NCBI GenBank assembly: GCA_032718475.1
Contig: JAUCBJ010006704.1
Coordinates: 4,004-68,003, forward strand
DNA length: 64,000 nucleotides
Reading direction: 5' to 3'
From: Nemertoderma westbladi
Lineage: Eukaryota; Animalia; Xenacoelomorpha
The notes below the pieces were generated by a model, which did no database searches, was not told the origin of the DNA, and saw only the letters and a list, made by a program, of their open reading frames with translations. Below, piece by piece: positions 1,953-43,600 of the stretch; the stretch's first letter is position 1, and each line of letters starts with the position of its first letter. A program made the translations under genes and the position numbers.

Positions 1953-4900
1953 CTTTAAATAAAATCTATGTTCACATAAGTGAACTGAGATATATTATTT
2001 TTTAAAAATAGGCATATAAATATATATAATTGCGACTAACTCTGCTAGTAACCATGTCCCTGAAGTAATTATGGCAGAAGAGATCCTGTCATGGAATCCG
2101 AAGTCATGGAGATTGGGTTCGCTGTGATCCAAAGTAATAGAACCCCCACAGAAGTTGGGATGCTGAAAGAGTGCTATGTAGGAACCAGTACCATCTAGTG
2201 CGGTCAATGCCCTCACGCTAGGCAAATAGTAATAAAAATAATAATGTTGATGTTAATTACAATACAATAATGGGTTACAATAAACAATGTCTACGAAAAG
2301 TTAGAGAGTTACATGGTTACATTGAGTGTATGATCTTGGATTAAAGTTAAGTTGACTGCAAAGTGACCTATTTGGCAACATGTTGAACCACATTGACTGA
2401 AGTTTAAATCCAGGCGGTTTCAATGTGTGGTATCTGGACATTGGGAACTTGGTGGATACCTATCGCGCGAGTAATAGTGGTGTAAGACCTCACATAACGT
2501 TGAGTCGGTTTTAAGTGTGAGCTCTATATCAACCCACAAAGAGTGATATCTTCTCCCTCAGAGCTTATAGTCCCACTGCTCTCACCAGATGGGGGGGGGG
2601 GGGGTGTCTGGATGCATTAAAAATTCATCCCTCTCCAGGGGAAATTTGATGCAAATAGCTGATTACTCGCAAAAATAAAACTGTAACCTGTTCTATTGTG
2701 TTTAGTTTATTATTTTGGTTAAAATAACGTGCCACTGCAACCTGCTCCTTTCCCTAAATAGAGAATTTAACTTTGAGGTGGGATATCATTTCGCCAAGAT
2801 GGGATTTTCGTCCAGTTCCCATCATGGTCTCACAGTCACATAATCAATCATGAATAAGTTCAAAACCAGACTCATCTGAGATGCAGATCCCAGCACTATC
2901 CCCTCCTTGGAGAAGCTCACAGGAAGCATGCATGAGGGTTGATGCGAAAATATCTTGCCTCTATGACAAACTTGCTCAGTGACCTTCTGATGAAGTATGA
3001 CTCAAAACCTGAGTTCAGTCCCCAGCACAAATGCAGGTATGGTCTCGTGCTTCTAACTTCAGCAGCTATCTGTGTCACTCTCTCTGTGAGGTTTCCACAC
3101 TTCCCCCAAACACCCTCTAATCCTGGCATTCTCCCTTCTCTCCGCTACCACTATGATCGATAGCTCTATGTCGACCGATATTATTCACCTGGTTTTGATG
3201 TAACTACCACTTCATGGACCATTACTAAGGGAAAATATACAGGGAAAATTAATTTACTTTAGATGGATGATATCATTCCCATCAGCTTTCTGGGCCTCAA
3301 ACTAAATTACGCATATTCTAGAATTCCAACGTCACGCCACCTCAGTTCAAGGTCACTGAGACTGCTCACACTGCGGTAGAGACATACAAAAAGGCTCTAA
3401 CAGGAATTGCTTTGCTAATTTCGCAACATTTCTGAAGTTTAGATATTATCAACCAATTAATGATATTCAATGTTTAAAATTACATTTTAAGAAATAAAGC
3501 TTTAATTTTTTTTAATATTTCAATTTTCGAATAAAAGTTCAAACTCCAAATCGTAATCTATCACTTTATAAGATGACAATTATTGTCTCTAATAAAATAC
3601 TCGTTATTGCTGGCTACTTGAAATGCTCGTTCTGTATTTTTATAAAAGTATCAAATATTTATGACGCTTAGATTATGAACTATGAAGTAAATAGTTATAT
3701 ATTAAATTAATATATCTTCATATTGTATATTTTAGACTTGCAGCTACTAACCTTGAAATAGTATTATCCCGAGGACCACTTGTACCCCAGCTTATAGGCT
3801 CAGGGTAATCACCTGGTCCAATTACCGAAGGCCTTCCGCAAAAGTTATCCTCATAGATGATCCACCTTAATAAAAATAAATATGACATGACGAAATAAAT
3901 TTAGTGAATGTCTAATGATGTTATACTGTATGTAAATGTTATATGTTATATGAGATACGAAGTAGAATTATGTCTAAACCTTTGTCAGCTACAAAGTTTG
4001 TAACCTACCCTTAGTCAGTTTAACATTGCTTTAGTTCCGCATCCAATATATTCATTCATGTCTGATACCTTTTGTGCCGGATTACTTACGTATTTATTTT
4101 ACTCGATTGAGAGTTATGTCCCATAATTTGAAAATTGAGACTGGAAGGTGGTTAAGGCTGTCGAGAGAGAACCGTGTGTGTCGCTGTGATAACCAATCGG
4201 TGCAGACAGAGACACACGTTCTTAACTTCATTGTCCCAATTCCAAACCGTTTCGTGTTACCCCCTATTTTCACACTAATCTTATTTTTTTCATCATTACC
4301 GGAATTTTTTCAGAGTAAGGAATTATGTATGTAATGTGTAAGTATATAGAGCGTGTTTTAGATAGTATGGATTAATTAAATTAGGTAAGAATATATTAGT
4401 TTGGATTATATTAATTAGGATTAAATTGTTTGTATTTGAAGTCATAATAACTGGACGATATTTTTTATTGCCGTAATTGTTTATTTGTAAATGGTTGTTT
4501 TGGTCTGTGTACGCGCTTTTGAAGACCTTTAGCAGTTTAACCTGCCAAAATTTATATGTCTTTTGATTCATAAATATACTTTAGAAGATGACAAATATTT
4601 AATACCAATAAACACAACATTAGCAGAAGCCAGCCTAGTGCGCGTCCATTCACCCGCTGGATAATCCCGGGAGACTGGATTCTGTCGGCTTAGATTATTA
4701 TTGCAGTGAAGCTTACGGTATTGTATTATTCGATTGATCGTTAATAATTAATTTCTGACTAATATTATTCACTTTCGGGAAATATTAACCGTTCCTTTAG
4801 GACGTGGCGCTCTATCTAAGTAAACAGAGCTATGACTTATACTAATCACAACGGTAAGTCGGTAAGGCTTATGATTCACGTATGAGGCGCATTCTTTAGG

Positions 4901-7900
4901 AAATGCCTAGTTATCAGCCACAATCATGCACACTATCAGTAACACACAATACTGCTCACTAATTTGCCGACCGTCAATGAATTTTATCATATATAAAGAG
5001 AATAGCAACGGACCAATGTAGTGCTTATCAAATAGCATTGAATTCAATACACACCACAATAATATAAGTCGCAATCGCTATAAATATAACCCGCCTCTCT
5101 AACCTGTAGTGTATCAAGAAAATTGGGAAATTTGGGTTCTTTATAAATGTTCTCCAGATAATATTCAATCAACTGATATAAAATATGACAACAGTAAAAA
5201 CATTAAGACGGTAGGTTAAGATATGATATATTGGAAGAGACGGTAACAATACCTGCAATATCCTACTGTAAAGTTTGTAAATCAAATCATAAATCCGACC
5301 TTCTCACCAAAACAGTAAACTCTAAGCAAGCGAATATATTGCAGTATCGATCTCTTATAACCGGTGAGGCAGAAAACAGTCTACGAGCAGACAAACTTCG
5401 ATAAAACAAATCCCGCGCAGCGAATCCTAAAATCAGGCTGACTCACTGACGGACTAAGGGGCTCGTATACTTTGCCGCGGTGTGATTTATATGGTTGGGC
5501 GAAGAGACGCTAGCTAGGTACAGGCAGAGATTTGGAGATGTCTAACTAGCGGGCAAAGCACAGTACGGACAAAGTTAATTTTATATATTTTGAGGTGTAA
5601 ATAATTTCTAACGCGCGTGTGTTAATTCTGAACGGTCAAAACAGTTTTGCTCCTTCACATATATAATTACTGGGTACGGTGTGCATTTTACGAATATTCT
5701 AATTTTATAACTTGTAGGTCCAATACTCACGAATGATAAGGTTCCTTCCCCTCTTGCGTATTTCCAGGACTCAAATTCAGGCATAAGGTTAATACTACGC
5801 CCAGAATTCGGCAATTTTAGGTACCAGGTCCCTGATACTAAGAAGAGATGTGTTAGTTTACTACTGTAGGCGTACGGGTACTAATAGCTATCCTGGCTCC
5901 TATCTAGAATTTTAGTCACCCAGGTAGTCCGGGTAACTTCCTATTAGGGCGTTGGCGGGGACACGGTAGATGTTAGTATATCCCTAATAGCCTCAATTTA
6001 TTTGCGCCTAGTACGTAAACTGCCCTACCGCCCGAACGGTACAATCCCAATTCAGGTGAAAACACAGCAACCCCCTAACCTACAAGTTCTAATGCAATGG
6101 ACACTGTCGTACTGCAAATAGTCGCACACACACCTGTACTTAGCAAGAGTTAAGCGTACAGTTTGCTGCACCCTAACCAATGTGTATGCCTTGTACCGGT
6201 GTGCCTACGTCCTATCTGCGTACTAGTATCTGCCTGCGCTCTCTCTCCCCCCCGTAGGAATGTGAAGGTCTACTGTGGGTTTTCCTGAATCAAGACAGTA
6301 CAGTCCCTATGATGTAATTTTGGGCTTACAGCGTGTCACTACGTCTACCTTTTGATCTTTTGGTCTTATACTTAGGTAGCAAGGATCGAACGCTGTCTAA
6401 CCTTTCAGGCGATGGGCGAATAACTCTAAATGGTATTGCGGGTTGTCTCTCGTCTACATTCCCGTGATGTTCCCGTTCATTGCTGCGGCCCGATCTCTAG
6501 CCGGCCATCCTGTCCCTGAGTTTGTTCACCGTAGTGAATCCATAGTAAAACAGATAGAAAAGCTGAGAGAATATTCTGACTTTATTACAGAAGATTATAA
6601 TAATATGTACAATGTAATCTGAAATAAACTAAGCACAACAGAATATTGATAAGATAATCTGTGAAGTAGAAGTGAAATTGAGAGATTGATAACTAATGAA
6701 CAAATCGCACCTTTATATAGCAAATTTGTGCCGCAATCAATCGAGAAAATTCTCGATTGTTCTATAGATTCTAACAAGGTTTTAAAGATAGCTATTGGTC
6801 CAGCTAATATATAACTTGCACGACATTGGTTACAATCAAATAACTACAGCCTCATTGGTACAGACAAATGCAATTAATTTGTAGCGGTTAATTTAAACGA
6901 GTTGAAATTCTGTACAAAAAATAATTCGCACTTACTAGGATTCGAACTCGATACCTACTACACATATAATTTCCAACGCTCTACCAACTGAGCTACTGAA
7001 CCACTTGACCGATAGATGTACAAATGATAGAACCAATACGAATGAGAACTCAAAGCAATCTTTACAAAGTTAATTCGAATAAAATAAAAATTTTGAAAAT
7101 CCACGGCATTTAGGGAATATAATTCTATATGATATGAAACAACAGTGATATGCACTGATGTGGACCGATAACAGTTATACGCTCTATAATCTTAAGCCTA
7201 CTAATGTTTCTTCTAAAGTATGAAACGAATTAACTCTAGAGCCGGTGTTTCTGGCTTAGACAGCAATAACAACAAAGTATCAAGTAAAAACAGTAAGACT
7301 GAACACTCTCCTTATGATCGGCCGAAAAGCTACACGTCGACAGGAAAAATCGCTCTGATTGGCTCAAGCCAAACAAAGAACCATGCGTCCAATGGCTGTT
7401 TCCATGTCAGCAACCAGCTGTTAGATGTCGTAATATGAATCATCACGGCTAAGCTGTGAAAGGTATTTGGTGCATTGTAGGTTTTTTGCCTTACCATGTC
7501 CGCCAAAACACGTATATAGCAGAATGACTTTTATGTCCGTTAAAACACCTATAACGGTACCTTGCGGGCGAGGGGAATATATATACAATTAGAGAACCTT
7601 TTTAGAGTATTCCAGCGCCTGGGGGGAAACTGGATTGCGAAGCAAAGGGGCCAGTTATATCCCACAGAAGCTTTTACACCGCTCCCAGAAAATGGGATTT
7701 GTGTCTATGAAATATACAAAATCACAGTTTCTAATATACGTAAATACTCTAAACAGTTAGTCTTTTTTGCGCGGACGGCGTTTACGCAGTTTTTTAAAGC
7801 TAGCCAGAGTCCTTTTCTCTTTGGGGCGAGCCACTTTACAAGGAGGGCTATAACTCCTGGGTGAAGGGTGCAATATGATTGCATCAGAGGGTATAGGATT

Positions 7901-10900
7901 ATGGTCGGTGTATCCGCCAGTCGAAGTACCGGGTTGATTGACATCAACGTCGGGGGAGAGGGGTCTAACGGCTTTGAGAGCGCGTTTTAAGACAGCTGCT
8001 CTTACGGGTCCTTTACGAGTGGTCTGAACGAGAGCCGTGGGTGGACCATAGGCAGTCAGAAACCTCCGGGGTTTAATGGTTCTTTCCAACTCGCGTTCGC
8101 GGGCTCGGTATTCATAAGGCCGTCGATATACTTCCTGTAACTCGGGGTGTGAGTTAACAAATAAGTCTCCATAGTCCGGGTCCTGGCGGATATAATTGAT
8201 TAAGCTATAGGAATGAAGGTCGCAAGGATTAACACTCCTGAGAAATTTGCGTACGAACTTGGTTGAAATACATTCTCCGACGCGCTTCAGTAGTTCGTAA
8301 CTCGATATGCGTGATTTCTGTTCGACAGAAGCGAATAGATAAGTATGGAACGCATAAACTCCTTCGTAAGCGCGTCCAGGATAATAACGATGGCGCGAAT
8401 CACAATGTAAATCAGCGTTCGCTTCCCAAGCTCTGATCTAACGTAGTGTGATCATTTCATCTAAGCTAATTCATCCAAATCGTGATTAAAAGGGCAATCG
8501 AAACTGGCGTGTCCCTTTAGTTGACAGTGGTGACATTGAGTCATAAATTGAGGGCAAACCGCAAAGATATGCAAGTTATTGAGTCTGCAATATGCGCAAT
8601 AAATTTCCATAGTCGGTTGTTCTTGGAAACAAGCTGGCAAGCCTGGAGGGTTCACGGTCCTCCTACTTAATCAGTACAATAATAATACGTTTTCGTTCGG
8701 GTAGGCCTATGTTTCCTTTTCACTTGTTCCCATCGTAGGCGACCTCATGCTCATCCCACCACGACCACGACCACCAGTTACGAGTTGGGTAGGCGTCTAC
8801 CGGCAACCGGTAAGTAATTACGCGCCACACGACGTCATCCCGCCATCCGCCAACATTTATACCGGTTCGGTAAGCCTACCACCTACCGGCTGGCTACCAT
8901 CGCACCGTAGGTCTACCGCCTACGCCTACCGGTCAACCGGTAACGGCAGGCTACCGCGTACCGGTACAGCGGTACTCAAAGTCGTACCAGTCTGCCAGTA
9001 TTGTCGTAATTGACAAATGCAGGATTAAACCGTAACCCGTTCCGGTACCGGTACCATATGCATCTGAACGACTGGACGGTTAATCTCATAGCATAGCTGC
9101 ATAGGCCTACCGGTAGTCAGTGCGAAGTCGCCTGCGAACATGGCGAAATATTATATTTACTGCTAGGGCTAGGCTAGGACCTACCAGCCTACTGCTGTAC
9201 TGACCTATGACAGTATGAAGATAGGCAGATAGGCCTACAGTGGTCAGGTAGTACCGGTCCGGTATGCCTACTACAGGCAGACAATCAGACAGTACTAGCA
9301 GTGCTAATTAATTACCTTAATTAAATCTTCAATTAGGTCATAATGTAGGTCCAAATTTAAAAATCGGCCTCCGTTAATCGATTTAGAAATAATTCAGGTA
9401 CCTCCATGCCAAATATCAGAATCATTCATTGCGTTCCCTATGACAAGATAGCTTTTTCCTAAACCATGCGAAAACACGCAAATATAGCGCTCACATCGCA
9501 CAAATACCATCTCGACACCCAATTTTTTGTATGAGCCTTCGCCATCCCTATATCTAACTTTTGTCCAAATTTTGTTTCGATTGATTAATAAATAACTGAG
9601 ATATCGCTCTGGACACACACACACACACACACACTAACACACACACACACACACACACACACATTACGGTAATAATGGTCACTTATGTCAAAGACCGTGA
9701 ACCAATAGGAACAGCGGACGTTGGTGTCCATGGGCGTATCGTGGTCTCTCGATGCGCATAACCGACAACGTTGCCTAGAAACATAGTTGGCATGTCGATA
9801 ATCGTACGCAGTGAGACACTGTGGACCTTGATACCATTCTATGATGTAGTCGTTGTCGCTGTTCCGGGCGCGATAGGCTGAATCTCCTCAGATTCTAGGC
9901 ATATTGGTTCGTCTTCCCAGTCTGTTACGAATAGAATTTTCGTGATATATTTTCGGTTTATCGTTACGACTCCGCTGGGTATGATATTTAAATAGAACCA
10001 TTTCCCTTTCGGTGTCTACATCGTCCGTATCATGTAAATCGATAGGATGGCAGGTAGTTAGGAAGTCCATATACGTACCATTACGATGCGTATAGCGAGC
10101 GGTGAATTTTCGATAGTCCAATTCACGCGTAAGTTGCTCTTGGGACATCGGCGGTTCAATATAACGACCATCGTCCTCCGTAATGGTTGGATCGGCTTCA
10201 CCGCGTATCAAGCTATCCACAAATGCTTGTAAAGGTAGAGTATATCGCTCCCTGATACCAAGATCATCTTATATCAACTCCGTCATATCTGCTATCTGAG
10301 TTTATTAATATTGTAATGAGTTTATGTTTAGGCGAGCGGGCGTCGCTGCCTACCTCTCTTCGCCCCGGACAGTGGGATTCTCAGCGCCGATGTACCGTCG
10401 TCGCGGTGTTTACGCCAACATGTAGCAACAGCAAGACAACGATAACCGGCACAAGTCACTCCACTGTCCGTCCCAAAGGCTTGAATCCACTTTAGGTTCT
10501 TTCTATAGGAGAGTTGGGCTACTTTCACAATTGCGACTAGCTACTGTAAACACACCTTAGCAGTAACATTCACTTACAAACGCACAAATTCCACACAACT
10601 GTCACCAATTGTACACATACAGGCCATTTGTCCGTTAGTCAGTGCCTTCCAGAATGTCACGTTATTACTGTGTATCCTTGGATACTAACAGTGTGTTATG
10701 TATTCTCTATGCTATGCAATGGGACAAGCTTTCTATTGTTCTTTTAACTTGCTTCTAATTCTAGCGTGGGTGTTACTATGGTGACATTATGGAATGCTAG
10801 CGGTAGAATTAGGGTAATTCTCATGCATACAGATCTGGGATGCTATTTAATAATAATTCTTTAATTGTCAATATCCTCTTTATGCATGATTTTATTAATT

Positions 10901-13900
10901 TTATCGGCTATTGACTATATGTTGGAGATTCTCGCACTCTAATACTCTCAATAGGATGAATCTCCGCTCCCATGATCTATTAATTAATGGAATTTTGGGA
11001 ATGTTATAAATTGTACAAAATGACAATTTATGAAATTCATTTAAAAATATGAATTTAAATTTATTCCCGTGAATTTTATTATTTGATGTTAAAATTGACA
11101 CAATTTTTATTCCAGAGCATGTCTGGGGACTGAGGATCTTTAATTCTATAAAATTGTCTTTTAAGAGTATCGGTAAGTGCTGCGATATCTTAATTGACTA
11201 GAAATTTTAAAGTATCCGAATTTTACAGATTTTAATAGATATTAATTAATATTTAAGATGGGCACCGATTTATTCCAGAACTTGTCTGGGGACGTTAACC
11301 ATTGATTCTAGAATTTGTCTTTCAAGTATATCGGTGGGTGCCGCGATATCTTAATCGACTAGAATTACAGATGGTCAAAAGTTTAACAGATTTATTTGCG
11401 TTTTACGCTACTGTTAGAGGGACATCACGCTACTATATGTATTATTTAATATAAGGTAGAAGAGCAATATCGCACGAAGCAATGTCAGTGTGAAGAGGCA
11501 AGTCGTTTCCAAGGTCTACCCAGAGCTTGGTTTAGCCGAGACACGAGGATCTGAACTTTGCATTCCTAATACTCTGTATTAGATCCAATAATAGAAAATA
11601 CTAATATCAGTTCACAAAATAATAATAATGATTTTATAATTTGTTAATATATATATATATATAAACTTGTCAGTCTACTGACTTACAATCATTGAAAGCA
11701 TACTACTAAGCTTCAGTAATTAACTTATTCAGTACTGCAGTAGGTGTTAAGCACCAAATCTTAAAAACTAAAAAAAACATTCTCTTTACCGGTATCAAAC
11801 TGTCCATACACTAATGTGTATCTCTTACACTACCCCCCCACCAGTAGCGGAGCGTCTTGTAGGTTATATGACTTGATTTTAGGACGAAGGTTAAACTTAA
11901 CAGTTTTCTTTTTTCGTTTCTTATAATCGTTTAGTGCTAAATCAAATGCCTTTTTGTATCCCCGAGTTGTTCGGTTATCAATATTTTGTTCAATTGGATT
12001 GAAGAGTTTTATGTTGTTCTCTGGAACAAATTCAATGCGATTAGACCCGTAATAGTGGACAGGAATCTTAGGTATAGATGAGCATTGTTTGTTTTGTAAA
12101 GATGGTATTACTAATCCAGGCCACGTTGGATATCCATCTTCTTTAGCCATTACAACAAGTCCTGGTTTGAACGTATTTTCGCCATATTTTCTTGTTGTCA
12201 TTACAGGTTCTTTGTTGTTTTTCATAGGTTTGATTTGTAAATGTGAGTTATTTGTAGTTGATTTCTCATCATTGTTTGATTTCTCATCATTGTTTGATTT
12301 CTCATCATTGTTTTGGATGAAAGCTGGTTTGGTTCGGTCTATCGAAATCTTTTGAGTCCTTCCTTTAATTTCAACTGTTACAGTTTTTTCATCGCGTTCT
12401 AGAACAACATATGGACCAGTATATCGATCACTGAGTGAAGATTTGACGCGTTCATTTCTAATCCAAATGTTATTTGCAGTTTCAAGTGATTTTGGGATAT
12501 ATGTTTTTTTATTGAATTGTCTCTCTGGGGCTCTATAGGAATCAATAGTTTTAAATAAATTATTCATATAGTCAGGAAGACTCTTTTGTTCATTTGTTTC
12601 GGTTGGCGCAAAAAATTGCTGGGGTAGATCGATTGTACCACCATATACCATTTGTGTTGCAGTATATCCATCAGGAGCAATACTATTGCGTAATCCAAGT
12701 AATACCATCGGTAATGTATCAACCCAGGAAGATGTGGTTGCATGACATCGTAGTGAATTTTTCAGAGTTCGATGAAATCTCTCTACAGCGCCATTGCATT
12801 GGGGATGATAGGTTGTAGTTCTTTTTCTATTAATTCCAAGTGAATGCATTAATTCACTCCAAACAGCAGATTCGAATTGACTTCCCCTATCAGTTATTAG
12901 TTCTCTTGGAACGCCGAATCTTGATATCCAATTAGTAATCATGGCTTTTGCAACTGATTCCGTGCTTATGTTATTTACTGGAATAACTTCAAACCATCTT
13001 GTGAAACGATCAAGTATTGTAACCATATATTCGTATCCTCTAGATTGTGGAACTTTACCAACTATGTCTATATGTACTGTTTGGAATCTACCTGTAGTTG
13101 GAATACCACCAATAGATGATTTTGTATGAAGTGTTATTTTGCATTTTTGACAGCGCTGGCATTCACGGCACCAACGTCTAATATCTTTCCGCATTCCTGG
13201 CCAAATATATTTGCCTGAAACCATGTTTAATGTTGGTTTAGTACTTGTGTGAGCCAATTCATGCAACTGTTTAAATAGTTGAAATCGCATAATAGTAGGA
13301 ACATATGGACGGAGATAATCCTTTGAGGCATCACAGACCAAAATCGAGTTTCAAATTTTCACTCGTTTTAGTGGTAGAGTTGTTTTCTGAAAAAATTGTG
13401 ACAGTGTGGAGTCATTATGTTGTTCTTTAGCTAGTTTTTCATCAAATTCAACAGATATGTTACTGCAATCGCGAGATAATGTATCAGCTACTATATTGGC
13501 GGTGCCTGATACATGAGATATGTGGCAATTGAATTCGGAAATATAAGATAGCCACCTAGTTTGTTGCGGAGATGGATTTTTCATTGTTAGTGCATTAATT
13601 AGTGGTTTGTGGTCAGTTTTAATGTCAAACTCAACAGAAATGAGCCATGAAAAATGTCGTAATGCAAGATAAATTGCAAGTAGTTCTCTGTCAAAGGTAG
13701 ACTTCCTAGATTCAAGTTCAGTTAGTTTCGCAGAAAAAAAAATGCAAGTGGTTGTCTTTCACCATTTTTCAATTGGTTCAACACTACACCAACAGCAACA
13801 CCAGAGGCATCAGTTGTTAGTTCTAATTTTGCAGTTGAATCAGGAAATGCCAGTGTAACTGAGTTTTTTAACATTTCTTTCAAATCAAAGAAGGCTTTCT

Positions 13901-16900
13901 CAGCTGTATCATTCCATTCTAAAGGTTTAAGTTTGTTTGTTTTATCTACAAAACGAGTCAAATCTGTTAAAGGAGTTGCAACTCGTGAAAATCCAGGAAT
14001 AAATCTGTGATAATAACCAGCCATACCAAGAAAACGTTTTAATGTCTTTATTGTGGTTGGTGTTTGAATTTTTTCTATAGCCTTAACGTTATCTAATAAT
14101 GGTTTTATTCCTGCACTGGAAATTTGAACACCAGCAAATTTTATTTCTGAACAGAAAAATTTGCATTTGTCTAGTCGTAATTTTAAACCAAGTTGTGTAA
14201 ATCTATTTAAAATTATTGACAAATGTTGAAGGTGTTCTTCTTCATTCTTGCTTGCTAAAGTGACATCATCTTGGTATCCCCAAGTAAACTCTAAACCATT
14301 GGTAGCGGAATCCATGAGTCTTTGGAATGTTGAACTAGCATTTCTCATTCCATATAACATCCGACGGAAAATAAACAAGCCAAATTGAGTTATTATTGCA
14401 GTCTTTTGTTGATCTTCGGGGTGAACTGGAATTTGTATGTATGCGGAGGCCAGATCGAGTTTTGAAAATACGGTACATCCTTGAAAACCACTCGGAAGGT
14501 CATTTAGGTTAGGCATTGGGTAACGATCAGGTACTGTTTGATTATTTAAGCCACGATAGTCACCACAAGCACGGAATGGTGTTGTTTTTGAGTTTGGTTG
14601 TTCTACTATATGCAAAGGGGATGCATAAGGTGATTCACCACGATAACATACACCAAGTTGTTCCCAATTTGTAAATATCTCTTTCGCTATTTGTAATTTA
14701 TTTCCATAAAGTCGGCGAGCTCTACAATAATATGGCGCGCCTTTTGTTATTATGTGATGTTCTACTTTGTGTTTGACAGGAGTGGATATGTTGATAGGAG
14801 TGAATAAGTCGGGATGGTTATTCAATAATCGCTTGACACTATCGCGATATTGATTATTTTCAATTGTAATATGACAAATATTAAAATCAATTGAATTAAT
14901 TGAGTTTGAATTAGTTGCTGGTAAAGTTTGTTTTATGCTATCTGTAGATTTAGGTAAATTATCTGAAGAAATCAGTCGATTATTCACGCAATCGATGAGT
15001 AATTTTTCTTTTTTTAAAAAATCTATACCTAATATTGGTTTTGAAACATCGGCTACATAAAAGTTCCATGTGAATACTTTGTTACCAATATCAGGCAGGG
15101 TAAACATTAAAGATTGTATTCCATTAACTTTAATAGGAGTTTGGTTTGCTGCCTTTAAATTTATTTGAGGAGTTGGGCGAGTTTCTAATGTTGTATAACT
15201 TAGAGGAAGTACACTACAATCACTCCCACTATCAGCTAAAAATTTGCCAATTGGATTTGCGGTCACAAAGATTGCATTTACTCCATCGCAGAAGGCCGCG
15301 GTCGCGGTGGAGTATTGGAGTTTCCCTGATGCTGAGGGAATCGGAAGTTATCTGGTTGTACCCAAGTGCAATTACCTGTACATTTTGTGGAATCCTTTCC
15401 AAATTTCCAGTGGTACCAGCACAATGAGGGAGTTTGGTTGAAAGAACGGGATTGGGAGTGTCCTCGGTAATATGATTCAGATCGATTTCTATACCCAGTG
15501 TCTCGGTCTGTGCTGGGATATCGTGAACGACCTCGTTCGTTTCTAGTTGATAGGGAATTAATAGCTTCAGATAGACGGTTGATTTCTTGAGTAATATTTT
15601 GGCACCAGGCCTGCATCTCAGGTGGAGGATTAATGTTACTCTCTGTTTTGGGTTTAACAGTTACTTCATTTACTAAACTATGACTTGGCATATTTTCAGT
15701 CATACGATCTGCTATTTCAGCAAGTTTATCTATGGGGACACCGTCTATAGAAATCAATACAAGCCGAATTGGTTCTGGTAGGATTTCTAAAAATCTTAAT
15801 TTAACAATATTTATGTTATTGGGTGCTAACCTCTGTAGATGTCGTAGTATTACGGATGGTTTCCGATCTCCAAGGCTTTGATCCTCTAGAAGTTTTTTCA
15901 AACGACGTTCTTCACTGTCGTCATAATATTTAATCAGACTTTCCTTAATTATATTAAAGCTGTCAGTAACCTGTGCCCCACTGTCAAATATGACATTAGT
16001 AGGAAGCACACGAAGTAAACTATTTTTCTTTATTGGTTCCGGGGTTTTATCGAGAATTTGCTCTATCTGGTCAAACCAAACATGGGTGTCTTTTTCATAA
16101 AATTGTGGCAACTTGACCGTTTGAGTTTGGTGAGTCGAGAATCCTGCATCAGTACTGCTACTGGATAAATTTGGGACATTGCGTAAGCTTTGCTGAACTT
16201 GATTAAAGGCTAGCTGTACAAACGTTTTATTTTGTTGCTTAAGTTCGTCTAGGATTTCTCCTTTAGTTTGTGGGGGTTGATATGATACATCTTCACTGTG
16301 TAGAATTTCAAGCACAGCTTCCAGTATAGACTTTGGCGCATTGTATATATCTGTAGACATTTCGGCTATTCTTTTATTGACTTACTGTATACTGACATGA
16401 CATACCTGGAGTTTAAATAGGCCCAATACGAATTAATCGCACTACCGGGCCAGCGTTCATCCTGCCGGTAATTTTGTGCTGGTACCAGGTTCGTTCTGAG
16501 TTCAGTTCAACATTCTGACATTCCAGCATTTACACCTAGGCCTAGTCGCTAGTCGTTGGCGTTGATGTTTAATATCTCGTCCGGGTCACCATTATTAGAT
16601 CCAATAATAGAAAATACTAATATCAGTTCACAAAATAATAATAATGATTTTATAATTTGTTAATATATATATATATATAAACTTGTCAGTCTACTGACTT
16701 ACAATCATTGAAAGCATACTACTAAGCTTCAGTAATTAACTTATTCAGTACTGCAGTAGGTGTTAAGCACCAAATCTTAAAAACTAAAAAAAACATTCTC
16801 TTTACCGGTATCAAACTGTCCATACACTAATGTGTATCTCTTACACTCTGCCTACCAATAATACTTGAATATAGTAGTGGCTTTATTGTACTTTAAGAAG

Positions 16901-19900
16901 TACGGACATTTCATCTTACTGTAATCACGTATTTATAATATGATACGGACAGTAAGGAAAGAGAAAAAATTATTTCTCGCCGTCGCACTGAATATATATT
17001 ATAAGTAATTACGTACGTAATAAACACTAATATATTGCACTAATCTACTAAATAATCACTAAAATAACATTATACTAAATAAAATTAAAGAAAACGATTA
17101 TAATAAAATTACATAATAATACATACATAAATATAAAATAAAAACAAATATAAAATGATATAGTCACACACCCACTCCATATGTTATTACGTTATAGAGT
17201 CCCTAGATATTTGTCGGATTAGGGAAGTGGTCGTAGGAAGAGTATCTTGCCTTCCATAGTTTCCGGACAGTTTTCGGTCTCTTTCCAGTAAACATAAACG
17301 ACCAGCTGGGCGATTGAGTTGTTGTGTTACTTTCTCCGCTCCCTTGGCCTGTCTAATCTCCGCCGGGGTAAGATGAGGAGGCCATTCTTCTTCTTCTTTA
17401 CTTAAGAAGTCGGATCCACCTAACCAGCCTGGAGTATCTATTAGTTCTTGAGGAGTTGCTCCTCTGGAAACGATGTCGGCTGGATTAATCGTCCCAAGGC
17501 AATGTCTCCATTGATCTATATTGGAGTTAATATCGTCATTATCTGAGGAGTATGGTGTTCCCTCAGTTGGATCGTCTACATCACTGCTCTCCACTTCCCA
17601 TTCCTTTACTTGGTATACCTGTTGTTGAGGTAATCTCTCTTTGAGAGTTCTACGGGAAGGGCCAGTGAAGTACCAACCTACTCTAGTTCTTACCGCATAG
17701 GTTTGCAGTGGCTGCGGTTGAGCAGGCCGTTTCTCCAATGTCTCGAGCGCCTCATGCGCGTTTTGGCCAATGAGTATTTGCACTCCAGGATAATCTGTCT
17801 GGAATCGAGGTATCTTAAGATGTTGGATGCTCTCATCCTCGTCCCAATTATAAAGGTCTGCTTGGGTAGTAGCGAAGTTCTTTATAGCCACCATTTTTAC
17901 TGACCTTATACTTTGTGCTCCTAATTTATCCTGGGGGGTGGACAACGCACCTACATAGTAATCTGCCGTTATGGTAGATTTCCAAACCTGCATAATTCCG
18001 GACATATTCAACTTAGTTTGGAATTTGGGTTGTCCAGCAAAGATATCTTCGGCTAGTTCTTGATCGATGAATGTTCCTGTGCTGCCAGAGTCAAGGAGGG
18101 CTTTCACTATGTAACTTTTGTTGGGACCGTGAACTCTTACTTGCACTACAGGAAATTCTCTGATTCCTACGTTGGAAGTTGGAGCTTTCCAAGATGGTTG
18201 TTTGGCATAAGTAGTTGGGGGAAACTCATTGTTGGTGTCCTTTTCATAAGTAAGTGCTCGATACACTGAGGTATTTATTAGGTAACAGGATTCGATGGCG
18301 TCGGAGAATTCGTCAGTATAGAATCCTTCCATCTCAGACTCTTGATCAGTGTCATTTACATCACTGAATTGGACATGTAGTTCGGGCTCACTTACCTGAC
18401 TCGGGTTGTTTCGTTCGAACTCACTGTGTAACAAGATGTGATGTTTCGCGCCACACTTTGCACACTTTACGTCGGAGTAACAGGTTCGCCGTTGGTGTCC
18501 TGATCTGAGGCAATTATAGCATAACCGCTTATTCCACAGGACTGTACGTCTGTCTACAAGGGATTTCTTTAGAAATTCAGCACACGCACTCAAATGGTGG
18601 GGCCCGTCGCACAGCGCACATTTTGGTTTGATGTTACTCACCTTACCTTGGGTAACGTTATGCACTCTCGTTCTTTCTTCGGGCTTTCTTCCGTGAATTC
18701 TCTTAGGAGACGTAGGAGGAGTTGTTGTTACCTGTTCTCTCCTGTCACTGGTTCGAGACTTGTATTTACTTACGTCTTTATAGGTCTTGTTGTCATAGTA
18801 AGATTTTGCTGTGTCTTTCCCGCTGTCCTCTTCTTGAGAAGCTTGGCTTTCGCCGTCGTCAGTATAACACACTGGTATTATCCTTCTCCTAGAAACGGGT
18901 TTCTCACTTACCTTATTTTCTGATGTTTTCTCTCTGGACTGCTTTATGAGTTGTAATTTTACTTCACTATCTAAGAAGGACATGAGATCAGCCATGGTAG
19001 GGCTTCGTCGTTGTTGTTCATTCATGTACAACACTTTCTTGTCCCAGCGCGTACATACTCCACCCTTTGGTAAAGTAGAGACTACGGCTCCAATAACCAT
19101 GGAACTCTGATATTCATGAGACTTACCTAACCAGTCCAATTGTCTACAGATTTCCTGAATTTCATCGGAAAACTCTATAATCCCGCTACTAAGGAAGTGT
19201 CGGGGGGCTACTAATTTTGCATACAAATACTTAGCTATGTTATCCTTGTTACCATACCTGATGTTTAATGTATCCCATACTTGTCGTAATCCTTCTGGAT
19301 GTCCAATAAACTTTAACGCCATTAACCTGGGAGGTCCTTCCAAGCACTTGATGAGGAACCTAAGTTTCTCTCTGTTAGATAGCACAGAGTTCTGTATGCT
19401 GTCTTTGTAATATTCATTGAAAGGTAACCATTTCATCTCATCTCCATTGAATTTGACGATCTCTCCCACTTTGACCGCTTGGCGGGCTTCTGTTCTAGCC
19501 ATCTGACGCGTAAAGCTTTCTTGGGCCATCGTGTTATTCAATATGGAATTATCGGTGTATAAATTTCTCGGATCATTATCAGGTCTATAGGGAATATCAT
19601 TAACAACAGGTCTATAATCACCCTTAATAGGGTTTGCTATAGGAGTTTCTACTTCACTAGCAGTATAGATGCGTGTAGGCTCCACACCTTGCGCATGTAA
19701 TACTTCAGACCTAACAGGTTGACACAATGTTACAGGGGGTATTGGTATGCCCTTTTGTATATTGACTAATTTGTCGCGTTCCAGCGCGATACTTTGCTGC
19801 ACTTCTTGCAACTCTGCCCTACCTTCCCTTACTGTTCCCTTAAGTTGGTGGACAGTCTCCTGCATCTGTCCGAGCAGGAGGTTCATCCCCCGCCGTCCCT

Positions 19901-22900
19901 CCTCTACCCACTCAACCGCCGAAGCGGGAGTCGCCAACATTGTAGCGGGCTGACGCGGGACGACGGGAGACAAATCTTTGATTCCTCTGTCAATGCTCAG
20001 GACAGGGGTATTCGCATGGACTGTTCCATCGGGTACAGGTAGTGTAGTACTGTGTAAAGGGAATTTAGAGTTAAGCTCTGGAAGTGCAGGGGTCTCTAGC
20101 ACAGGAGTGACTTTGGGAACGACAGGCCTAATTACTTCAGGCTCATCGACTATAGTAGGGAGTCTTTTGACCTGAATAAATTGTTCTATGGGTTCTACAC
20201 TACCTAAGTCTGTGCTAGTTAGTTGTCTTTTAACAGCTGGGGGCAAATCAGGCAATTTGTGACGGTAAGATGTTTTTCTACGCCTGCTTAGACGAGATCT
20301 ATTTCCTCCGCCTTCAGGATCGGTGGTTTCGCTTTCCTCCGATGAAGTATAGCCCTGGCATTTGGGAGTAGATTTTCTCATTATCTGCATGTGACTAGCA
20401 GTTAACTGTTTATTTATGTTGTCTTGCGTCTCTTGCAGCTTCTCCAACTCCAGTTGGGTAGTCTGCTCAGACGCTCTCCGTTCTGCTTCTGCTACTGCCT
20501 TTTTCGCCCTTGCTTCTGCTTCTGCCATGGCCGCCTTTGCTTCTGCCGCCGCTGCCTTTGCTTCTGCCGCCGCTGCCTTTCTTTGTATTTCTACTTCTGC
20601 CCTTGCTGCTGCCTCCTTTCTTTCTGCTTCGGCTTCTGCCATGGCCGCCGCCCTTTGTTCCTCTATCCGTCTTTTCTTTACTTGTTCTTCTTGGACTCTA
20701 ACGAGGCGGAGTTTTTCATCAAATTTAGCTTGGTTTGCAGCTAACATTTCCGCATCGATTGCGTCCAACACAAGCTTGGTTCCTTCACTATTAGGGCGAA
20801 GTCCAGACAGTCGTCTCCTCAACTCTTCGTCTCCTATGAATCGCTGATAGTCTGACAGATAGATGTCAATGGCGTCTCTAGTTCGCGGCTTTTCTGCTGA
20901 TGTTAATTCGCTTTCCACTTCGCTTTCCACTTGAGAAGAAGTGGCGTCGGTTGATTCTTCATAGGTTGGCCGTTCATCATAAACCGTATCCACCATCTTC
21001 GCTCCGCGTTCGGGTGTCCGCTCAGCAGTATCCAAACTACTGGAGCTATCGGGCCGCTGAGAACTAGGTTCTAGGCTAGGATGTTGCTGCTGTTTGACAG
21101 CTGCTTCTTGATCCCGCTTGACTTGGGCCCGAGTACCGATGATAGACCTACGTTGTTCTACTAGCCTAGGGTCTGACACTACTACTGTAGGGATGGCCTT
21201 TTTGACAATAGTAGGTGACTTAGACTTGGATCTAGGATGTTCTAGACTTGGATCTGGGTCATTGATCTTTTTAAGACACTGTCTAACAGTCATTCTAACA
21301 CTTTCTAAGAGACTATCCGACAGTGATTGGGTTGTGTCTGACATGTTTGTTTACACAATTGAATGCCTACGGCTATAAATACAGTTAAAGCAAGTCTAGC
21401 AATTCAGTATCACTGTTAGCCTAATAATTAATTACCGATACTGCTACTCAGTGTAGCGTGATATATATATAATATATTAGAATACCGGTATGCTTATAGT
21501 ATATATATAAGTATTATTACAGACTAGGTTTGTCACAGAGTACCGGTATATAAATTTAGCACAAATATATATAAATATATAATAGGCCTATCGTGAATAC
21601 CGGTATACAGCCTACACTTATAGTATATATAAGTATAATTATGAACTAGAATTAATTACAGAATACCGGTATGATTTCAGCTAAAATTTATAGAAATAAA
21701 TATAATAAGCCTATGGCAAATACCGGTATGTCAATTATTTTAGAATAATTGAATTTCTGAATATTTAGGGTTACTTGGTTACTTTAACTTACTTTGTTAC
21801 CGTTATTTAAGCAGTAGTCCAACTGATTTTGAGACCTAGTTGTTGTATGGCAGGCCTACTACTTATAAATCGTTTGAGTTGATTTATAATATATATATAC
21901 CCGTTAAAAGGGTTTTGTCTATATTTGAAATAAATGTTATTATTTCTGGGGGAGTCACTACACAGAAGCTGTGCGCTCTCAGTGAAGTGCTATTTATGGG
22001 ACACTAAAACAGATAATTCTAATTTACCTAAGTTACTTAATACTACAAATTACTTACGATATGGGTGAGATTAAATCTCTAATTAAACACAACAAAAATA
22101 TTACGTACGAAATTTTTAGGGTAATTTTACAGGAAGTCTACAAACCAGCCTAACAAAGGGTTAGAATTCTGGTTATTACAACGGACAGGGTACTACGGTA
22201 TTTGAAACAATAAGTAGTAGTAAATATATTGCACTGTCCAGATAGGAAAATACCACCGCCTGACGACCTATAACCGTATCGCTATAGGTACTACGTTATG
22301 TATCACGGAGTGTTCCTACCTAGAAGTTAATTACCGCGGACTACCAGATCCAGCGTGCCTATTAACCACTTTACAACACAAATTACCGCCTACACACTAA
22401 TTACTTCGGGAAGCACTGTACACTAAACCCTAAATTAGGTACAAGTAGTGGTACAACAAATAATCAGTAGTTAAATATACTTGAACAGTTAAAAGAACCA
22501 CGGCATCTGCTGGAGTGACCAGAGCACAAAGTCACCAGTCTTGTCCTACGCCAAGCAGCCCGTGTAGTACCGGGTTAATTTAACTATAACGGTATGTGTA
22601 ACAAACACAATTACTGTAGGAATAAACTTGGGGACATGAATGTTGCGAATAATCGCATAAACTCTGAATAATAAATATTACGCTACCCGTACAGAATACT
22701 CAAACAAAATACAAACCAAACGCTGGCAGACTACCACCAAGCCTAAATAAACTACTGTATGTGCAGATTCCAAAACGGTTAGTTAGTATGCGTTCTAACA
22801 CGGTAGTACGACTTATTCTTTAAGAGGGGATTGACCTTACAGTTATGACTGCCCCAACTTACTAACTGGCACTTTATCAGACAAACTCTACACAAGCAGC

Positions 22901-25900
22901 AATCTCTTCAGACCTAATAATAGCTAGACAACAATCCAGCCTACAAAATATCTGAGTAATAACTATTACGGTATCTGAACAGACTACACAAACAAACACA
23001 AGCCAAAACGCTGGCAGAATACTGTCAAGCCTAAATAAACTACAGTATGTGCAGATTCCAAAATTGTTAGTTAGTATGCGTTCTAACACGGTAGTACGAC
23101 TTATTCTTTAAGAGGGGATTAACCTTACAGCAATGGCTGCCCCAACTTACTAACTGGCACTCTATCGGACAAACTCTACACACGCCGTAATCTCTCCAAA
23201 CTCAACAACAATCAGACAGCAGCTAAGCCTACAATTATCTGAACAATCTGAGCAGACTTACACGTCTTCAGCTCAATATTAACTTACTAGTAAATAAATC
23301 CGACAGAAATGAGTAAAATCTCAATAAAAAACCAGGGCTGCAGTCCCTGATTAAATACTAAGACCTACCGGTATACAATAATCAAAATCGAATAATACTA
23401 ATGTACTTATACTGGAAGTACCGGTTAGGACAGTTGGGCCTACGGACCTACAGAAGTACCGGTTCTGGCAGTTGGACCTACGGACCTACGGCAGTACCGG
23501 TTCTGGCAGTTGGGCCTACTGACCTACAGAAGTACCGGTTCAGGTTTACCGGTTGACCGGTACTTTCAACTTTATTGCTTACTGCAATAAAGTCAATAAC
23601 TGTTATTGTACGCGCTTTTGAAGACCTTTAGCAGTTTAACCTGCCAAAATTTATATGTCTTTTGATTCATAAATATACTTTAGAAGATGACAAATATTTA
23701 ATACCAATAAACACAACATTAGCAGAAGCCAGCCTAGTGCACGTCCATTCACCCGCTGGATAATCCCGGGAGACTGGATTCTGTCGGCTTAGATTATTAT
23801 TGCAGTGAAGCTTACGGTATTGTATTATTCGATTGATCGTTAATAATTAATTTCTGACTAATATTATTCACTTTCGGGAAATATTAACCGTTCCTTTAGG
23901 ACGTGGCGCTCTATCTAAGTAAACAGAGCTATGACTTATACTAATCACAACGGTAAGTCGGTAAGGCTTATGATTCACGTATGAGGCGCATTCTTTAGGA
24001 AATGCTTAGTTATCAGCCACAATCATGCACACTATCAGTAACACACAATACTGCTCACTAATTTGCCGACCGTCAATGAATTTTATCATATATAAAGAGA
24101 ATAGCAACGGACCAATGTAGTGCTTATCAAATAGCATTAAATTCAATACACACCACAATAATATAAGTCGCAATCGCTATAAATATAACCCGCCTCTCTA
24201 ACCTGTAGTGTATCAAGAAAATTGGGAAATTTGGGTTCTTTATAAATGTTCTCCAGATAATATTCAATCAACTGATATAAAATATGACAACAGTAAAAAC
24301 ATTAAGACGGTAGGTTAAGATATGATATGAAACAACAGTGATATGCACTGATGTGGACCGATATCAGTTATACGCTCTATAATCTTAAGCCTACTAATGT
24401 TTCTTCTAAAGTATGAAACGAATTAACTCTAGAGCCGGTGTTTCTGGCTTAGACAGCAATAACAACAAAGTATCAAGTAAAAACAGTAAGACTGAACACT
24501 CTCCTTATGATCGGCCGAAAAGCTACACGTCGACAGGAAAAATCGCTCTGATTGGCTCAAGCCAAACAAAGAACCATGCGTCCAATGGCTGTTTCCATGT
24601 CAGCAACCAGCTGTTAGATGTCGTAATATGAATCATCACGGCTAAGCTGTGAAAGGTATTTGGTGCATTGTAGGTTTTTTGCCTTACCATGTCCGCCAAA
24701 ACACGTATATAGCAGAATGACTTTTATGTCCGTTAAAACACCTATAACGGTACCTTGCGGGCGAGGGGAATATATATACAATTAGAGAACCTTTTTAGAG
24801 TATTCCAGCGCCTGCGGGGAAACTGGATTGCGAAGCAAAGGGGCCAGTTATATCCCACAGAAGCTTTTACAGTCTGTATAATTTCAATTTGAATTAGTTA
24901 TTCTGTGCCGTAAAATTATTTCTTGGAACAAATACGTCAATAAACATATATATATATAGGAGAATGAAAGATTAAAGGTTGAGATTGATTGATTGGATTG
25001 CTCCTATTTTTACGATTTAATAACGTTTGTGAGAATATTATATTAATTTAATTATATTATATTATTATAGAATGTATTGTATAGAATGTATATAGAATAT
25101 ATATATGTATAGAATATAATATATGTATAGAATGTATATCGAATGTACATAGAATGTATACAACGTATTTATTATTAATGTATCAAAAATTACTCTAGAG
25201 TAGGTAATTTACTATACTTGAGGACCGGAGACTGGAGACATACAAATTGTAAGTATGTATTAATTAATTTTAACGATATCAAATTGGTGAACCTATTATT
25301 TGTTCTAGAATATTTTGATGGGGAGTGGAATATTGGTTCAATAATATTAGTATATTTTATTAGTTCATAGAATAATCTTATATACTCGGCACTGCATGAC
25401 AGCTGCGCAGTGAGATGCTAAGCAGGCTTAACAAATAAATATATCCACCACATGCATGTAGTCTACAATTGGCTTGCAGTGATGCAGCCTGCATTAAGAA
25501 TGCTATGCCGGCTTGTCGAGAAAGTTGCGCCTCCACACCTGACTTTCGCGATATTATCCGCATGTTCAAGGCCAGTTTCCTTTAAGAGGCGTCTTAAGTC
25601 ATGGGCAGTAATGAACCTTGCCTATTTACACCATGGGGCTGCCAAAACACAATATTGAGCAAAGCCTGGTCTTTGCGGCTAAAACAATGTCCTGCCAATC
25701 GGAGGTGGTTATGTTCAAGTTTCAAGCTTGGGGGGGGGGGGGATGAGTCAGAGTCATTTCCAATATTATATGATCTCTGGTTATCAGTAAACTACTTGAC
25801 AAAAGATAATTTTATTATATGAATGATACTCACCATCCACATTCCACTTTTATACTGGACACAGCGTTCTCAGTTTCAGTTCTGTCAAAAGTTCCCACAT

Positions 25901-40618: not shown

Positions 40619-41184
40619 AGAAATTTGTTGACCAATTACAGAAGTTCAATTTCTACAGTTTGTAAGGAAACTGAGATAAAGGACATAAGTAAAAAATGTC
40701 AAAGTTTGCTTTGATAATTCTGAAATGAATATATCGTTTTCGATGTCGCTGAACACGATGAAACTAGTTATAAATACTATTTTTAGTAATGCAAACCCAT
40801 TTTTGGTGCCATTCTAGTGCCCCAAAACGAAAAGTACAAGTAGCACAAAATTATAATTTAATATATTATAATTTGTAATTCAGAAGCTATACTGGTTTTC
40901 AAAGCCGCTGATCACGATACAACTCGTTTAAATCATTCGTGGTAACGCAACTATAATTTTTGCTACATGTCTGGTGGGACGATAAATACAAATAGCGTAA
41001 ATAAACCCAACGTTAGATTAACGTTGGTGGTTTGCAGGGCAGTATGAGTTACAAATCTGTGTAGAACTTATGCATATTATTTCATTGTATTTAGGTACTT
41101 TTAATATATTAATATGAAATTAAATATTATCGCGCTTGCTGTTACCTTTTATTGTTATTATTGTATTGTTACTTTTTTCTTTGA

Positions 41185-42390
41185 AATACTTTTTCACCAT
41201 CACCAAACCGAAATTTAGTGTTGCTTACTACAGTATATTGCTCTATAACCTTACTGCTAACAAACTCACCTAGAGATTCCAGATATACTGATAACCACTC
41301 TTCTCCACATACTGTTGAAGTATAACCAGTATCCAATTTACCATGATTAAAATAATGTTTCTAGAATAAATGTCGACTGTTCTTCTTCGGGTTTTAAGAA
41401 ACAGTGTTAGATATACATCTTTACCGACTATCGACTTTAAAATGCTCTTATCAACCGTCTAATAGCTATCAAGATGGGGGATCTTGATAGCTAGTATTAG
41501 ACGGTTGATAAGAGCAGTCTTTTTGAAAATGGTGTGGGGATTTACAACTTCGGCACAACATTTGTTGACCATCTGGATGCCTTGGATTAGATACTCTTCC
41601 ATATCTCATGGACCTACCATTATACCTCTAACATACCGACCACGTGATGTAAAATAAACAGATTGTTCAGTTCATCATCACAGTCCTCCAGACCACCTTC
41701 CTCATATAAATAATCATTATCCTCACAAAGGAATGTAACCTCAGTCTCTTGCTTGACACGCACCGCAGTTGTACACCCACTATCGCCACCTGTAAACATT
41801 ACCTTTGATTCCCCAAAGATACGTTTTAATATCGTCTTCAATTAATTCTTGATATATTAAATTCTTTTCTGTTGTTAGAGCAATTTTTCTCTCTGAATCT
41901 GACAAATTCGCCTTATCTAGAAGCTCATAAGATAAAACTCCATCCCCAAAATCTCATGTCATATTCTTTGGCTTTATTATACTGTACCGTGTTTCAAACT
42001 CAGTGATAAACTCATCGGAAATAGTGTCTACATCTTTATTCTTTAAATATTTAAACAACGAATAGGCTTCGTAAGCACAGTCGATTTTATCCTTTAGATA
42101 AATTTCATCGAGTTTTCTAAGTAACGTTCTAACTTCTTTACCTTTTCGAGTCTTTAACTCCATCTGCATTTAGTTGTTCAATGAGTACCTCTAACGCGTT
42201 ATCCTTAGCTTTCCTTGGTAAACACAACAATCAACAATATAGCTGGGGCTTGTCGTTTCTTTTCAATATCATTAACAAGTTTCAAAATCTTTAACTCCCG
42301 TTGCCACGTTATATAATCCGAACCAACACCTAATAAAGGCGGATTTTTATACGACCGCCCACCGGAAACATTAGTACTACTTTCAGCCAT
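41185..42390 (-). mobile_element. Degraded Ty1/Copia (GalEa-like) gag-protease remnant
   Basis: YKNPPLL..YITWQREL; LLRKLDEIYLKD..AYEAY..F; LLDKANLS; MKTILKRIFG; knuckle CRSCKSPHHFQKDC; protease LDTGYTSTVCGEEW..FRFGDG; multiple frameshifts. Confidence 0.75.
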
Positions 42391-43600
42391 TATTTTATTA
42401 GATGCGTTTAGGCCTACTAGGCCTACCTACCTATTGTCTGTTTATTTAGCGTGTTTATTAACACGCTCTGTTAACACGTTAAAGTATAAGATAGGAAACG
42501 TACCTGCCATTTTCTGATGACACGTACTCGGACACCCCCCAGATTTTTCTACAAATCTTTATCATATTGCCTGAAATTTGAAACACAACTAGTTCAAGAA
42601 GCCGGAATTTTCGATTTTACCTTTAAATTAATTTTATAAGCGTTTTAAAAAAGTGTCTTTTGCGAAATCGCACCTTCAGTATCGTGGCCATTCTTCACAT
42701 TAGTCGTAATTTTTGTGACGGGATACGAGTTGGCAAAAGATCCCGACCGGTGTGTGTGTGTTTGAGTCAATAGAAAGCTTGCGTTGCAAGGATTCGAAAT
42801 ATGTAACAAAATATCATAGTTTGAATATCCCGCCACCAATATACTAGAATTTCCATATTATACTGTATACACACATGCATTTGGCATTAAAAACCTTTCC
42901 CGAAATGTATTCGTGCTGCCCAAGTACCGCGCGGAGGCTCCACAAAATATATCTTGGCAGAATTTATAAATTTATTGGCCTCCAAAATCGCTGAGGACAT
43001 CTGGTGGTTCACTAAATGGTGCCGCAATGCTAAGACTTCCCCTTAGTCATGTACCGACAAAATCATTAACAGCTACTACAGTGCGAGATAATTAATTTTA
43101 ATTAATTTTAGTTAATTTTAATTAATTTTTAATTAAGTTAATTAAGTCAGTCCATTAAGTCAGTTAAAATCATTGGTATGGTGACTAAATACAGTATGTT
43201 TTTAAATTTTCCATTTTGACAATATCAGCGACACCGAACAACTTTCAGTTTCACAAGGATTTAGTATTTATTTACCATTGAAATGTATTTTTTTATATTA
43301 TTTACAGATATTTTTACTATTTACAAATTTACAATAAAAATATTTCACAAACATTTCACAAGTTTTCTGTACCGGGTTTATAAACATTATAATATTAATT
43401 CCAGCTAATTATTGGATGGGTATCAATTTATTGATTATAATTTATCTTCGAGGAACGCGTTTATATTTTTATACACGTAATTATTTACATTATCTACAAA
43501 TAAGAAGCAGTTTGATAATTAAACACAAGATGGCGTTGTTGATACACATTTAAGTTCTACTACTGATTATTATCCAAAGCAGCAGTTCAAAAACTGATCA

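Follow-up and report, generated by a model that had tools for sequence, protein, structure and literature searches.

Does the integrase of a Gypsy element from the xenacoelomorph Nemertoderma westbladi end in a PWWP chromatin-reader domain of its own and, if so, is this domain an accident of one copy or the property of a lineage that uses it to reach chromatin? The element lies in a stretch of 64,000 nucleotides of contig JAUCBJ010006704.1, hereafter the window, for which an initial annotation, made from the sequence alone, had proposed such a domain. The parts of the element are as follows.

11830-13350, minus strand: integrase frame, 506 aa, open
12481-13350, minus strand: integrase zinc-binding domain (aa 17-72) and catalytic core, from Pfam and motif positions
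12322-12480, minus strand: GPY/F module, with the lineage signature S-L-S-x-R-Y-x-G-P
12172-12321, minus strand: low-complexity linker with an 18-nt repeat in three copies (NNDEKS, 12259-12312)
11923-12171, minus strand: PWWP domain with a Tyr-Trp-Tyr cage, from Pfam, PDB sequence search, model and fold searches
11830-11922, minus strand: basic tail KKRKKKTVKF ... DAPLLVGG and stop codon, after the PWWP domain
11833-11842, minus strand: polypurine tract, within the last codons of the integrase frame
11577-11829, minus strand: 3' LTR, 253 nt
16593-16845, minus strand: 5' LTR, 253 nt, TG...TA, the same as the 3' LTR letter for letter
16574-16591, minus strand: primer-binding site, first letters TGGTGACCC
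15278-16381, minus strand: gag with a C-x2-H-x9-C-x3-C motif, overlapping pol in the -1 frame
13351-15347, minus strand: pol with protease, RT and RNase H, interrupted in this copy
11572-11576 (left, plus strand) and 16846-16850 (right): target-site duplication CTCTG

A PWWP domain at the end of a Gypsy integrase

Profile and fold comparisons both identify the C-terminus of the Gypsy integrase (aa 394-476 of the frame) as a genuine PWWP domain. Pfam PF00855 matches the integrase frame with 38.3 bits (E 1.9e-9, profile positions 3-87 of 93), against a curated cut-off of 25.6 bits, while a profile built from nine relatives, with the window left out, gives the integrase tail 50.1 bits. The top score of shuffled tails against the latter profile was 7.3 bits (924 of 1000 shuffles reported), which rules out a chance match. 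When the PDB was searched with the window domain, the PWWP domains of LEDGF/PSIP1 and of HDGF-related proteins came out on top (E 4.4e-5). An AlphaFold model built with the ten element sequences (pLDDT 83.5; a single-sequence model reached only 37.8) presents five strands followed by a C-terminal helix, i.e. the five-strand barrel and helix of the PWWP fold. The matches listed by Foldseek for this model were all PWWP-containing chains, and the best match of a wide fold search was the PWWP domain of MSH6 (Z 11.5, rmsd 2.3 for 85 residues); Tudor domains rank lower, from Z 6.5 down. The initial annotation had recognized the domain by its sequence pattern and had suggested both the Pfam comparison and a structure prediction of the C-terminal part; both bear it out. 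Its description of a GPY/F module, three NNDEKS repeats, a PWWP domain and a basic tail within a single open reading frame is likewise accurate, all of these lying in the 506-aa frame.

The catalytic triad of the integrase consists of D95, D154 and E190, with 35 residues between the last two (DD35E). The GPY/F module is marked by YTGPY (12409-12423) and DRTKPA (12322-12339), and a flexible linker of 50 residues separates it from the PWWP domain. The stop codon of the frame directly adjoins the 3' LTR, past the purine tract. By its LTRs, primer-binding site, polypurine tract, target-site duplication, gene order PR-RT-RH-IN, DD35E triad and GPY/F module, the element belongs to the Ty3/Gypsy group, and it is young. 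Its primer-binding site may resemble tRNA-Trp, the primer expected in the CsRn1 clade. A G-GGA-AAC heptamer, which is a putative slippery site, lies in the gag/pol overlap, and pol is interrupted by a frame break near 13722-13758 and by a stop at 13351-13353. The duplication can be read as 5 nt, with TG as the start of the LTR, or as 4 nt, with the start one base earlier; two contigs of public run X1 that end at 16845 favour the 5-nt duplication. The LTR termini read TG...TA instead of TG...CA (16593-16845), TGTA being among the terminal motifs used by LTR_retriever (PMC8220671).

The element had initially been labelled Mag-like. The Mag clade is defined by conventional CCHC Gag knuckles; the gag of the window has a CHCC motif instead, and the label is not supported. 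Indeed, this gag contains one match to C-x2-H-x9-C-x3-C, the Gag motif given for the CsRn1 clade (PMC2582038), which points to a CsRn1-like Gypsy element. An assignment to the chromoviruses was also rejected, since Pfam matches up to E 1 include no Chromo family and the corresponding slot is taken by the PWWP domain.

A lineage of integrase-PWWP proteins

A search with the whole integrase returned 264 relatives, the best of them at 52% identity, which mostly end in short basic tails; a PWWP annotation was found in none of the best 120 of the 264. A search with the GPY/F module and the PWWP domain together, against 1.84 billion representatives, gave 1003 matches, of which 150 were listed. The domain is carried by nine of the 270 proteins fetched: seven are seeds, and two were found by profile (E 4e-17 and 1.5e-14, the next best match being at 0.15). 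In a Pfam scan of 30 proteins, seven scored above the PWWP cut-off, P0132 scored below it and P0133 had no match. The nine relatives are unnamed records from JGI, Logan, ENA or NCBI, and P0128 is a single frame of 1128 aa that reads PR-RT-RH-IN-PWWP. The combination of rve and PWWP, for which the initial annotation had recommended a wider search, is therefore found in nine further proteins. Pairwise identity of the domain among the window and these relatives is 18-41%, which implies that it has been retained over a long divergence, and all ten sequences keep the frame and the fold motifs of PWWP. The C-terminal tail has a median of 55 aa in 171 relatives, compared with 136-192 aa in the seven PWWP members matched and 164 aa in the window.

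Several other searches were performed. A word-indexed tail search among proteins of 887-2530 aa found the architecture in none of 286 candidates; this search was weak and missed P0128. With a PWWP-only profile, five of 7995 scored proteins were returned, all of them known members, with no host proteins among them. Single-protein locus searches yielded nothing in viral contigs or metagenomes, and two loci with a 42-residue match lacked PWWP. The ESM Atlas returned integrase clusters only, with PWWP in none of the matches listed and no usable match for P0121, a result that says nothing on novelty.

In a tree computed on 171 integrase columns from which the PWWP domain is excluded, the window, five relatives and P0001 form one clade (99/92); this tree contains 70 of the 154 rows (64 of the 70 chosen by score), is midpoint-rooted, and has a bootstrap that did not reach convergence (0.912). 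With all 154 rows, FastTree recovers the same seven-row clade (0.907). Four proteins (P0132, P0135, P0141 and P0199) were too short and were left out of the trees, and P0001 ends at the GPY/F motif and so cannot show a tail. The signature ahead of the GPY motif is present in eight of the ten PWWP members and in 0 of 227 other proteins. The sister rows P0002, P0003 and P0111 lack PWWP and have a similar tail end, K/R-V-x-F, with P0111 ending in DAPLLEGG. It seems that a single insertion placed PWWP in the linker, ahead of an older tail, and the domain is likely to have been captured once from a host chromatin protein. A one-off capture, the case that the initial annotation had named as speaking against its proposal, was rejected: ten sequences that diverge from one another have the domain after the GPY/F module in one frame, and the members long enough for the tree fall into a single clade on non-PWWP columns.

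The stretch is present in four of six public runs listed (three samples, three studies, one species label). The part from the PWWP domain to the LTR is covered gap-free by contigs of X1 (488 nt, four differences) and X4 (504 nt, seven differences), over 346 nt in X2 (two differences), and in three pieces in X3. Four differences in the tail were classified, three as synonymous and one as missense; two more, in the last codons, fall outside this count. Contig depth, which is not a copy number, is similar for the PWWP part and the integrase core (121 and 127 in X1, 84 and 86 in X2); it shows no common PWWP-less form. Every contig breaks at the 18-nt repeat and none bridges the integrase core and the PWWP domain, so the join between the two rests on the window and its relatives. 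In X4 a piece from PWWP to LTR occurs without the integrase core, and the right junction of the window copy is covered by none of the runs; such holes carry no weight as evidence. In one X3 contig a different flank adjoins the LTR end, and at least one further insertion therefore exists. The breaks in pol may be private to the window copy or assembly errors, because the contigs from three public runs have a different sequence at the pol stop codon and, in this stretch of pol (13351-13758), two gap letters.

A second, related Gypsy family was observed in X1, X2 and X4, with 26 differences over 126 nt (window 13183-13308). Its X4 contig of 4728 nt would, if collinear and LTR-ended, reach to about 76 nt short of the 3' end of the element, and would therefore exceed what a tail without PWWP needs; the same species is likely to have a second family with PWWP.

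The proposed chromatin tether and its alternatives

The initial annotation had noted that the cage positions Y, W and Y are present, and these three residues do align with Y18, W21 and F44 of LEDGF. The full aromatic trio occurs in six of the ten members and is incomplete in four, P0133 being one without the cage; the exposed Tyr position is aromatic in seven. Two further PSIP1 positions have changed throughout: M15 is kept in none of the ten (the window has Glu), and no member has an acidic residue at position 49, which is occupied by Arg, Lys, His or Val (Arg in the window). K14 is kept in six. In PSIP1, a cage of M15, Y18, W21 and F44 and a basic surface of K14, K16, K39, K56 and K73-K75 together bind H3K36-methylated nucleosomes at 1.5 µM, whereas the peptide is bound at 17 mM; methyl specificity is lost when M15, Y18, H48 or E49 is replaced by alanine, and a structural role is possible for W21 and F44 (PMC3663649). 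With M15 and E49 lost, and W21 and F44 possibly structural, only the Tyr speaks for the cage. The non-acidic residue at position 49 lowers the case for a PSIP1-type domain and not that for a methyl reader, because DNMT3B, by alignment, also lacks an acid there.

In each of the six members whose cage is complete, two of the four residues that precede the last helix are basic, compared with none or one in the other four members; this patch was compared with K73-R74-K75 of LEDGF in a register that is our own reading. The domain core is net basic in nine of ten. As regards the donor, LEDGF/PSIP1 is the best PWWP match in the PDB for three members searched singly, and the ten-sequence profile, with 40.2 bits for NSD3 PWWP2 versus 39.4 and 39.1 for LEDGF/HDGF, does not single out a donor. 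The domain may also resemble that of GLYR1/N-PAC.

The insertion site of the window copy is built of three nested features.

3866-25833, minus strand: host intron of 21,968 nt in a beta/gamma-crystallin-domain gene, on the same strand as the Gypsy and BEL elements
4508-24871, minus strand: enclosing BEL/Pao-type LTR element, with LTRs at 4508-7678 (interrupted) and 23607-24871
11300-11576, resuming at 16851 to at least 17100, no strand given: very high-copy repeat that was the Gypsy target, from contig depth

The intron is bounded by GT-AG and interrupts a crystallin motif: the exons on either side can be joined in frame, the upstream one matching positions 1-41 of Pfam Crystall and the downstream one positions 43-73. 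The host gene (1998-34327, minus strand) has a signal-peptide-like start and several beta/gamma-crystallin motifs spread over short exons. The BEL element, at 20,364 nt, makes up 93% of the intron; its LTRs are 99.6% alike and it has a 5-nt duplication, GTCTG. Its gag-protease frame (17187-21350, 1387 aa) runs into a piece that we take to resemble the end of an RNase H; no RT was found by Pfam in the frames scanned, and in its 3' region the frames 7757-8437 and 9585-10268 have no Pfam matches. This young element is probably a non-autonomous derivative. One of its LTRs carries a 1.9-kb insertion at 5230-7126 with a 9-nt duplication and without clear terminal inverted repeats.

Summed contig depth is about 1e6 in the repeat that flanks the Gypsy element versus about 1e2 inside the element (runs X1-X3), and contigs join across the empty site. 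The statement in the initial annotation that this copy sits in a host intron is thus correct as far as the intron is concerned, but omits that the copy is nested in a high-copy repeat within the BEL element. Because of this nesting, a single site is uninformative on targeting and was rejected as evidence for it; the mapped site is equally compatible with silent chromatin and with a gene body.

By analogy with LEDGF/PSIP1, we consider it moderately probable that the integrase PWWP acts as a methyl-H3K36 tether for the integration complex; tethering to nucleosomes would be the well-grounded part of this proposal, and H3K36 specificity the less well-grounded one. The PWWP domain would be kept on the mature integrase, where its aromatic cage would hold the methyl-lysine and its basic residues the nucleosomal DNA, as in LEDGF/PSIP1. 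The multimeric integration complex would carry several such domains, which could provide avidity and tether it to nucleosomes, probably to H3K36-methylated ones in transcribed regions. Insertions would then favour gene bodies, in which introns that are long and filled with repeats may make them tolerable. A broader reading, which we put forward more tentatively, is that of an old, undescribed Gypsy lineage with an in-built LEDGF-type tether: such elements would encode their own H3K36me reader and aim at transcribed gene bodies, as a mirror of the chromoviruses, and some sub-families may have lost or retuned the pocket.

The domain might also tether the complex by reading nucleosomes or DNA without specificity for H3K36 methylation, or by reading another mark, and so raise efficiency or steer insertions to repeats, not genes. 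We regard this as rather unlikely, even if the absence of M15 and of an acidic residue at position 49 from all ten members, the missing cage aromatic in four, the net basic core and the mapped insertion in a high-copy repeat inside the BEL element would suit it well, as would the solved PWWP domains that bind DNA or other marks (PDB entry titles; PMC11910589). Set against these points are the exposed Tyr position, which is aromatic in seven of ten members despite such low domain identity, and the coincidence of full cage and basic patch in the same six members, both of which favour the methyl-H3K36 tether.

It is improbable that PWWP serves another step, without a choice of site, by keeping the pre-integration complex on chromosomes or in the nucleus, by binding to nucleic acid in the particle, or by acting once released from the integrase. 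The flexible linker would permit cleavage, and the basic tail after the domain is a possible nuclear signal; yet PWWP fills the slot in which chromovirus chromodomains direct integration (10.1101/2021.11.30.470311) and is flanked by the GPY/F module on one side and by a terminal motif common to PWWP-less relatives on the other. A neutral passenger or chance capture in the window copy, for which the lack of PWWP annotation among the best integrase relatives and the broken pol might be cited, is very improbable and largely refuted by the ten divergent sequences that keep frame and fold motifs and by the gap-free coverage of the domain in contigs of four runs.

Relation to known systems and other features of the window

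Chromoviruses such as MAGGY also have a Royal-family methyl-lysine reader fused after the integrase GPY/F module; the MAGGY chromodomain targets H3K9me regions, and integration is guided to heterochromatin by chromodomains at this position (10.1101/2021.11.30.470311). The window element differs in that its reader is a PWWP domain, its backbone looks to be CsRn1-like and its predicted mark is one of transcribed chromatin. In lentiviruses, a PWWP domain likewise links integrase to nucleosomes, through LEDGF/p75 (PSIP1; PMC8149907, PMC3663649, PMC10018349), whereas the PWWP of the window is encoded in cis by the element, without an integrase-binding domain and without M15 and E49, and its role is a predicted one. 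With CsRn1, Kabuki, Boudicca, PwRn1 and AgCR of the CsRn1 clade, the element shares the Gag CHCC motif, the -1 gag/pol overlap and short LTRs; unlike the window element, these have no reader domain reported in the available part of that source, where the PwRn1 and AgCR rows give a 4-nt duplication (typical, and not stated as defining) versus the 5 nt read here (PMC2582038). Host chromatin readers have also been taken into element proteins as PHD fusions (10.1101/2021.11.30.470311) and as an MBD in arthropod Copia (PMC6673714), which involve a different domain and superfamily.

A survey of 172 genomes recorded 823 cases in which a mobile element is fused to a reader or modifier, PHD and Chromo accounting for most of them; its section on fusions makes no mention of PWWP, of which its Figure 5d or Supplementary Table 6 may list cases (10.1101/2021.11.30.470311). 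In the accessible text of a paper on PWWP gene evolution, a term search found no mention of integrase or transposons (PMC3457860), and the consulted portions of PMC11244446 and PMC6673722 bring up PWWP only in connection with DNMT3 or LEDGF. Among the full-text literature matches listed, with Repbase, Dfam, GyDB and most subscription journals outside the scope, there was no description of an integrase-PWWP element, in agreement with the supposition of the initial annotation. The conserved integrase-PWWP lineage is real and appears to be undescribed, and its role would be one of targeting.

The best-studied reader encoded by an element as part of its integrase, the chromodomain, leads to silent chromatin, and HIV depends on a PWWP protein of its host to get to active genes. 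In a natural fusion of integrase and PWWP the two would meet, as a convergence on the lentiviral solution without the host cofactor. Drosophila LTR elements exhibit a gene-body preference for which the tether is not known (PMC10018349). The PWWP lineage makes a route of LTR elements to gene bodies testable, and natural controls come with it: the six members whose cage is complete, the four in which it is not, and the sister group that lacks PWWP.

Several unrelated features complete the window. Pieces of another Gypsy integrase (50984-53991, plus strand; rve 55.5 bits) have an ordinary short tail that ends in SRSGR and lack PWWP. The segments 41172-42426 (decayed and gag-like) and 61677-61877 (exon-like) look coding and have no useful Pfam match. 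A LINE at 45574-48713, with endonuclease and RT, is presumably RTE-like. Finally, a 22-nt tandem array of 68 copies occupies 43745-45242, and a 17-nt satellite extends over several kilobases from 55794.
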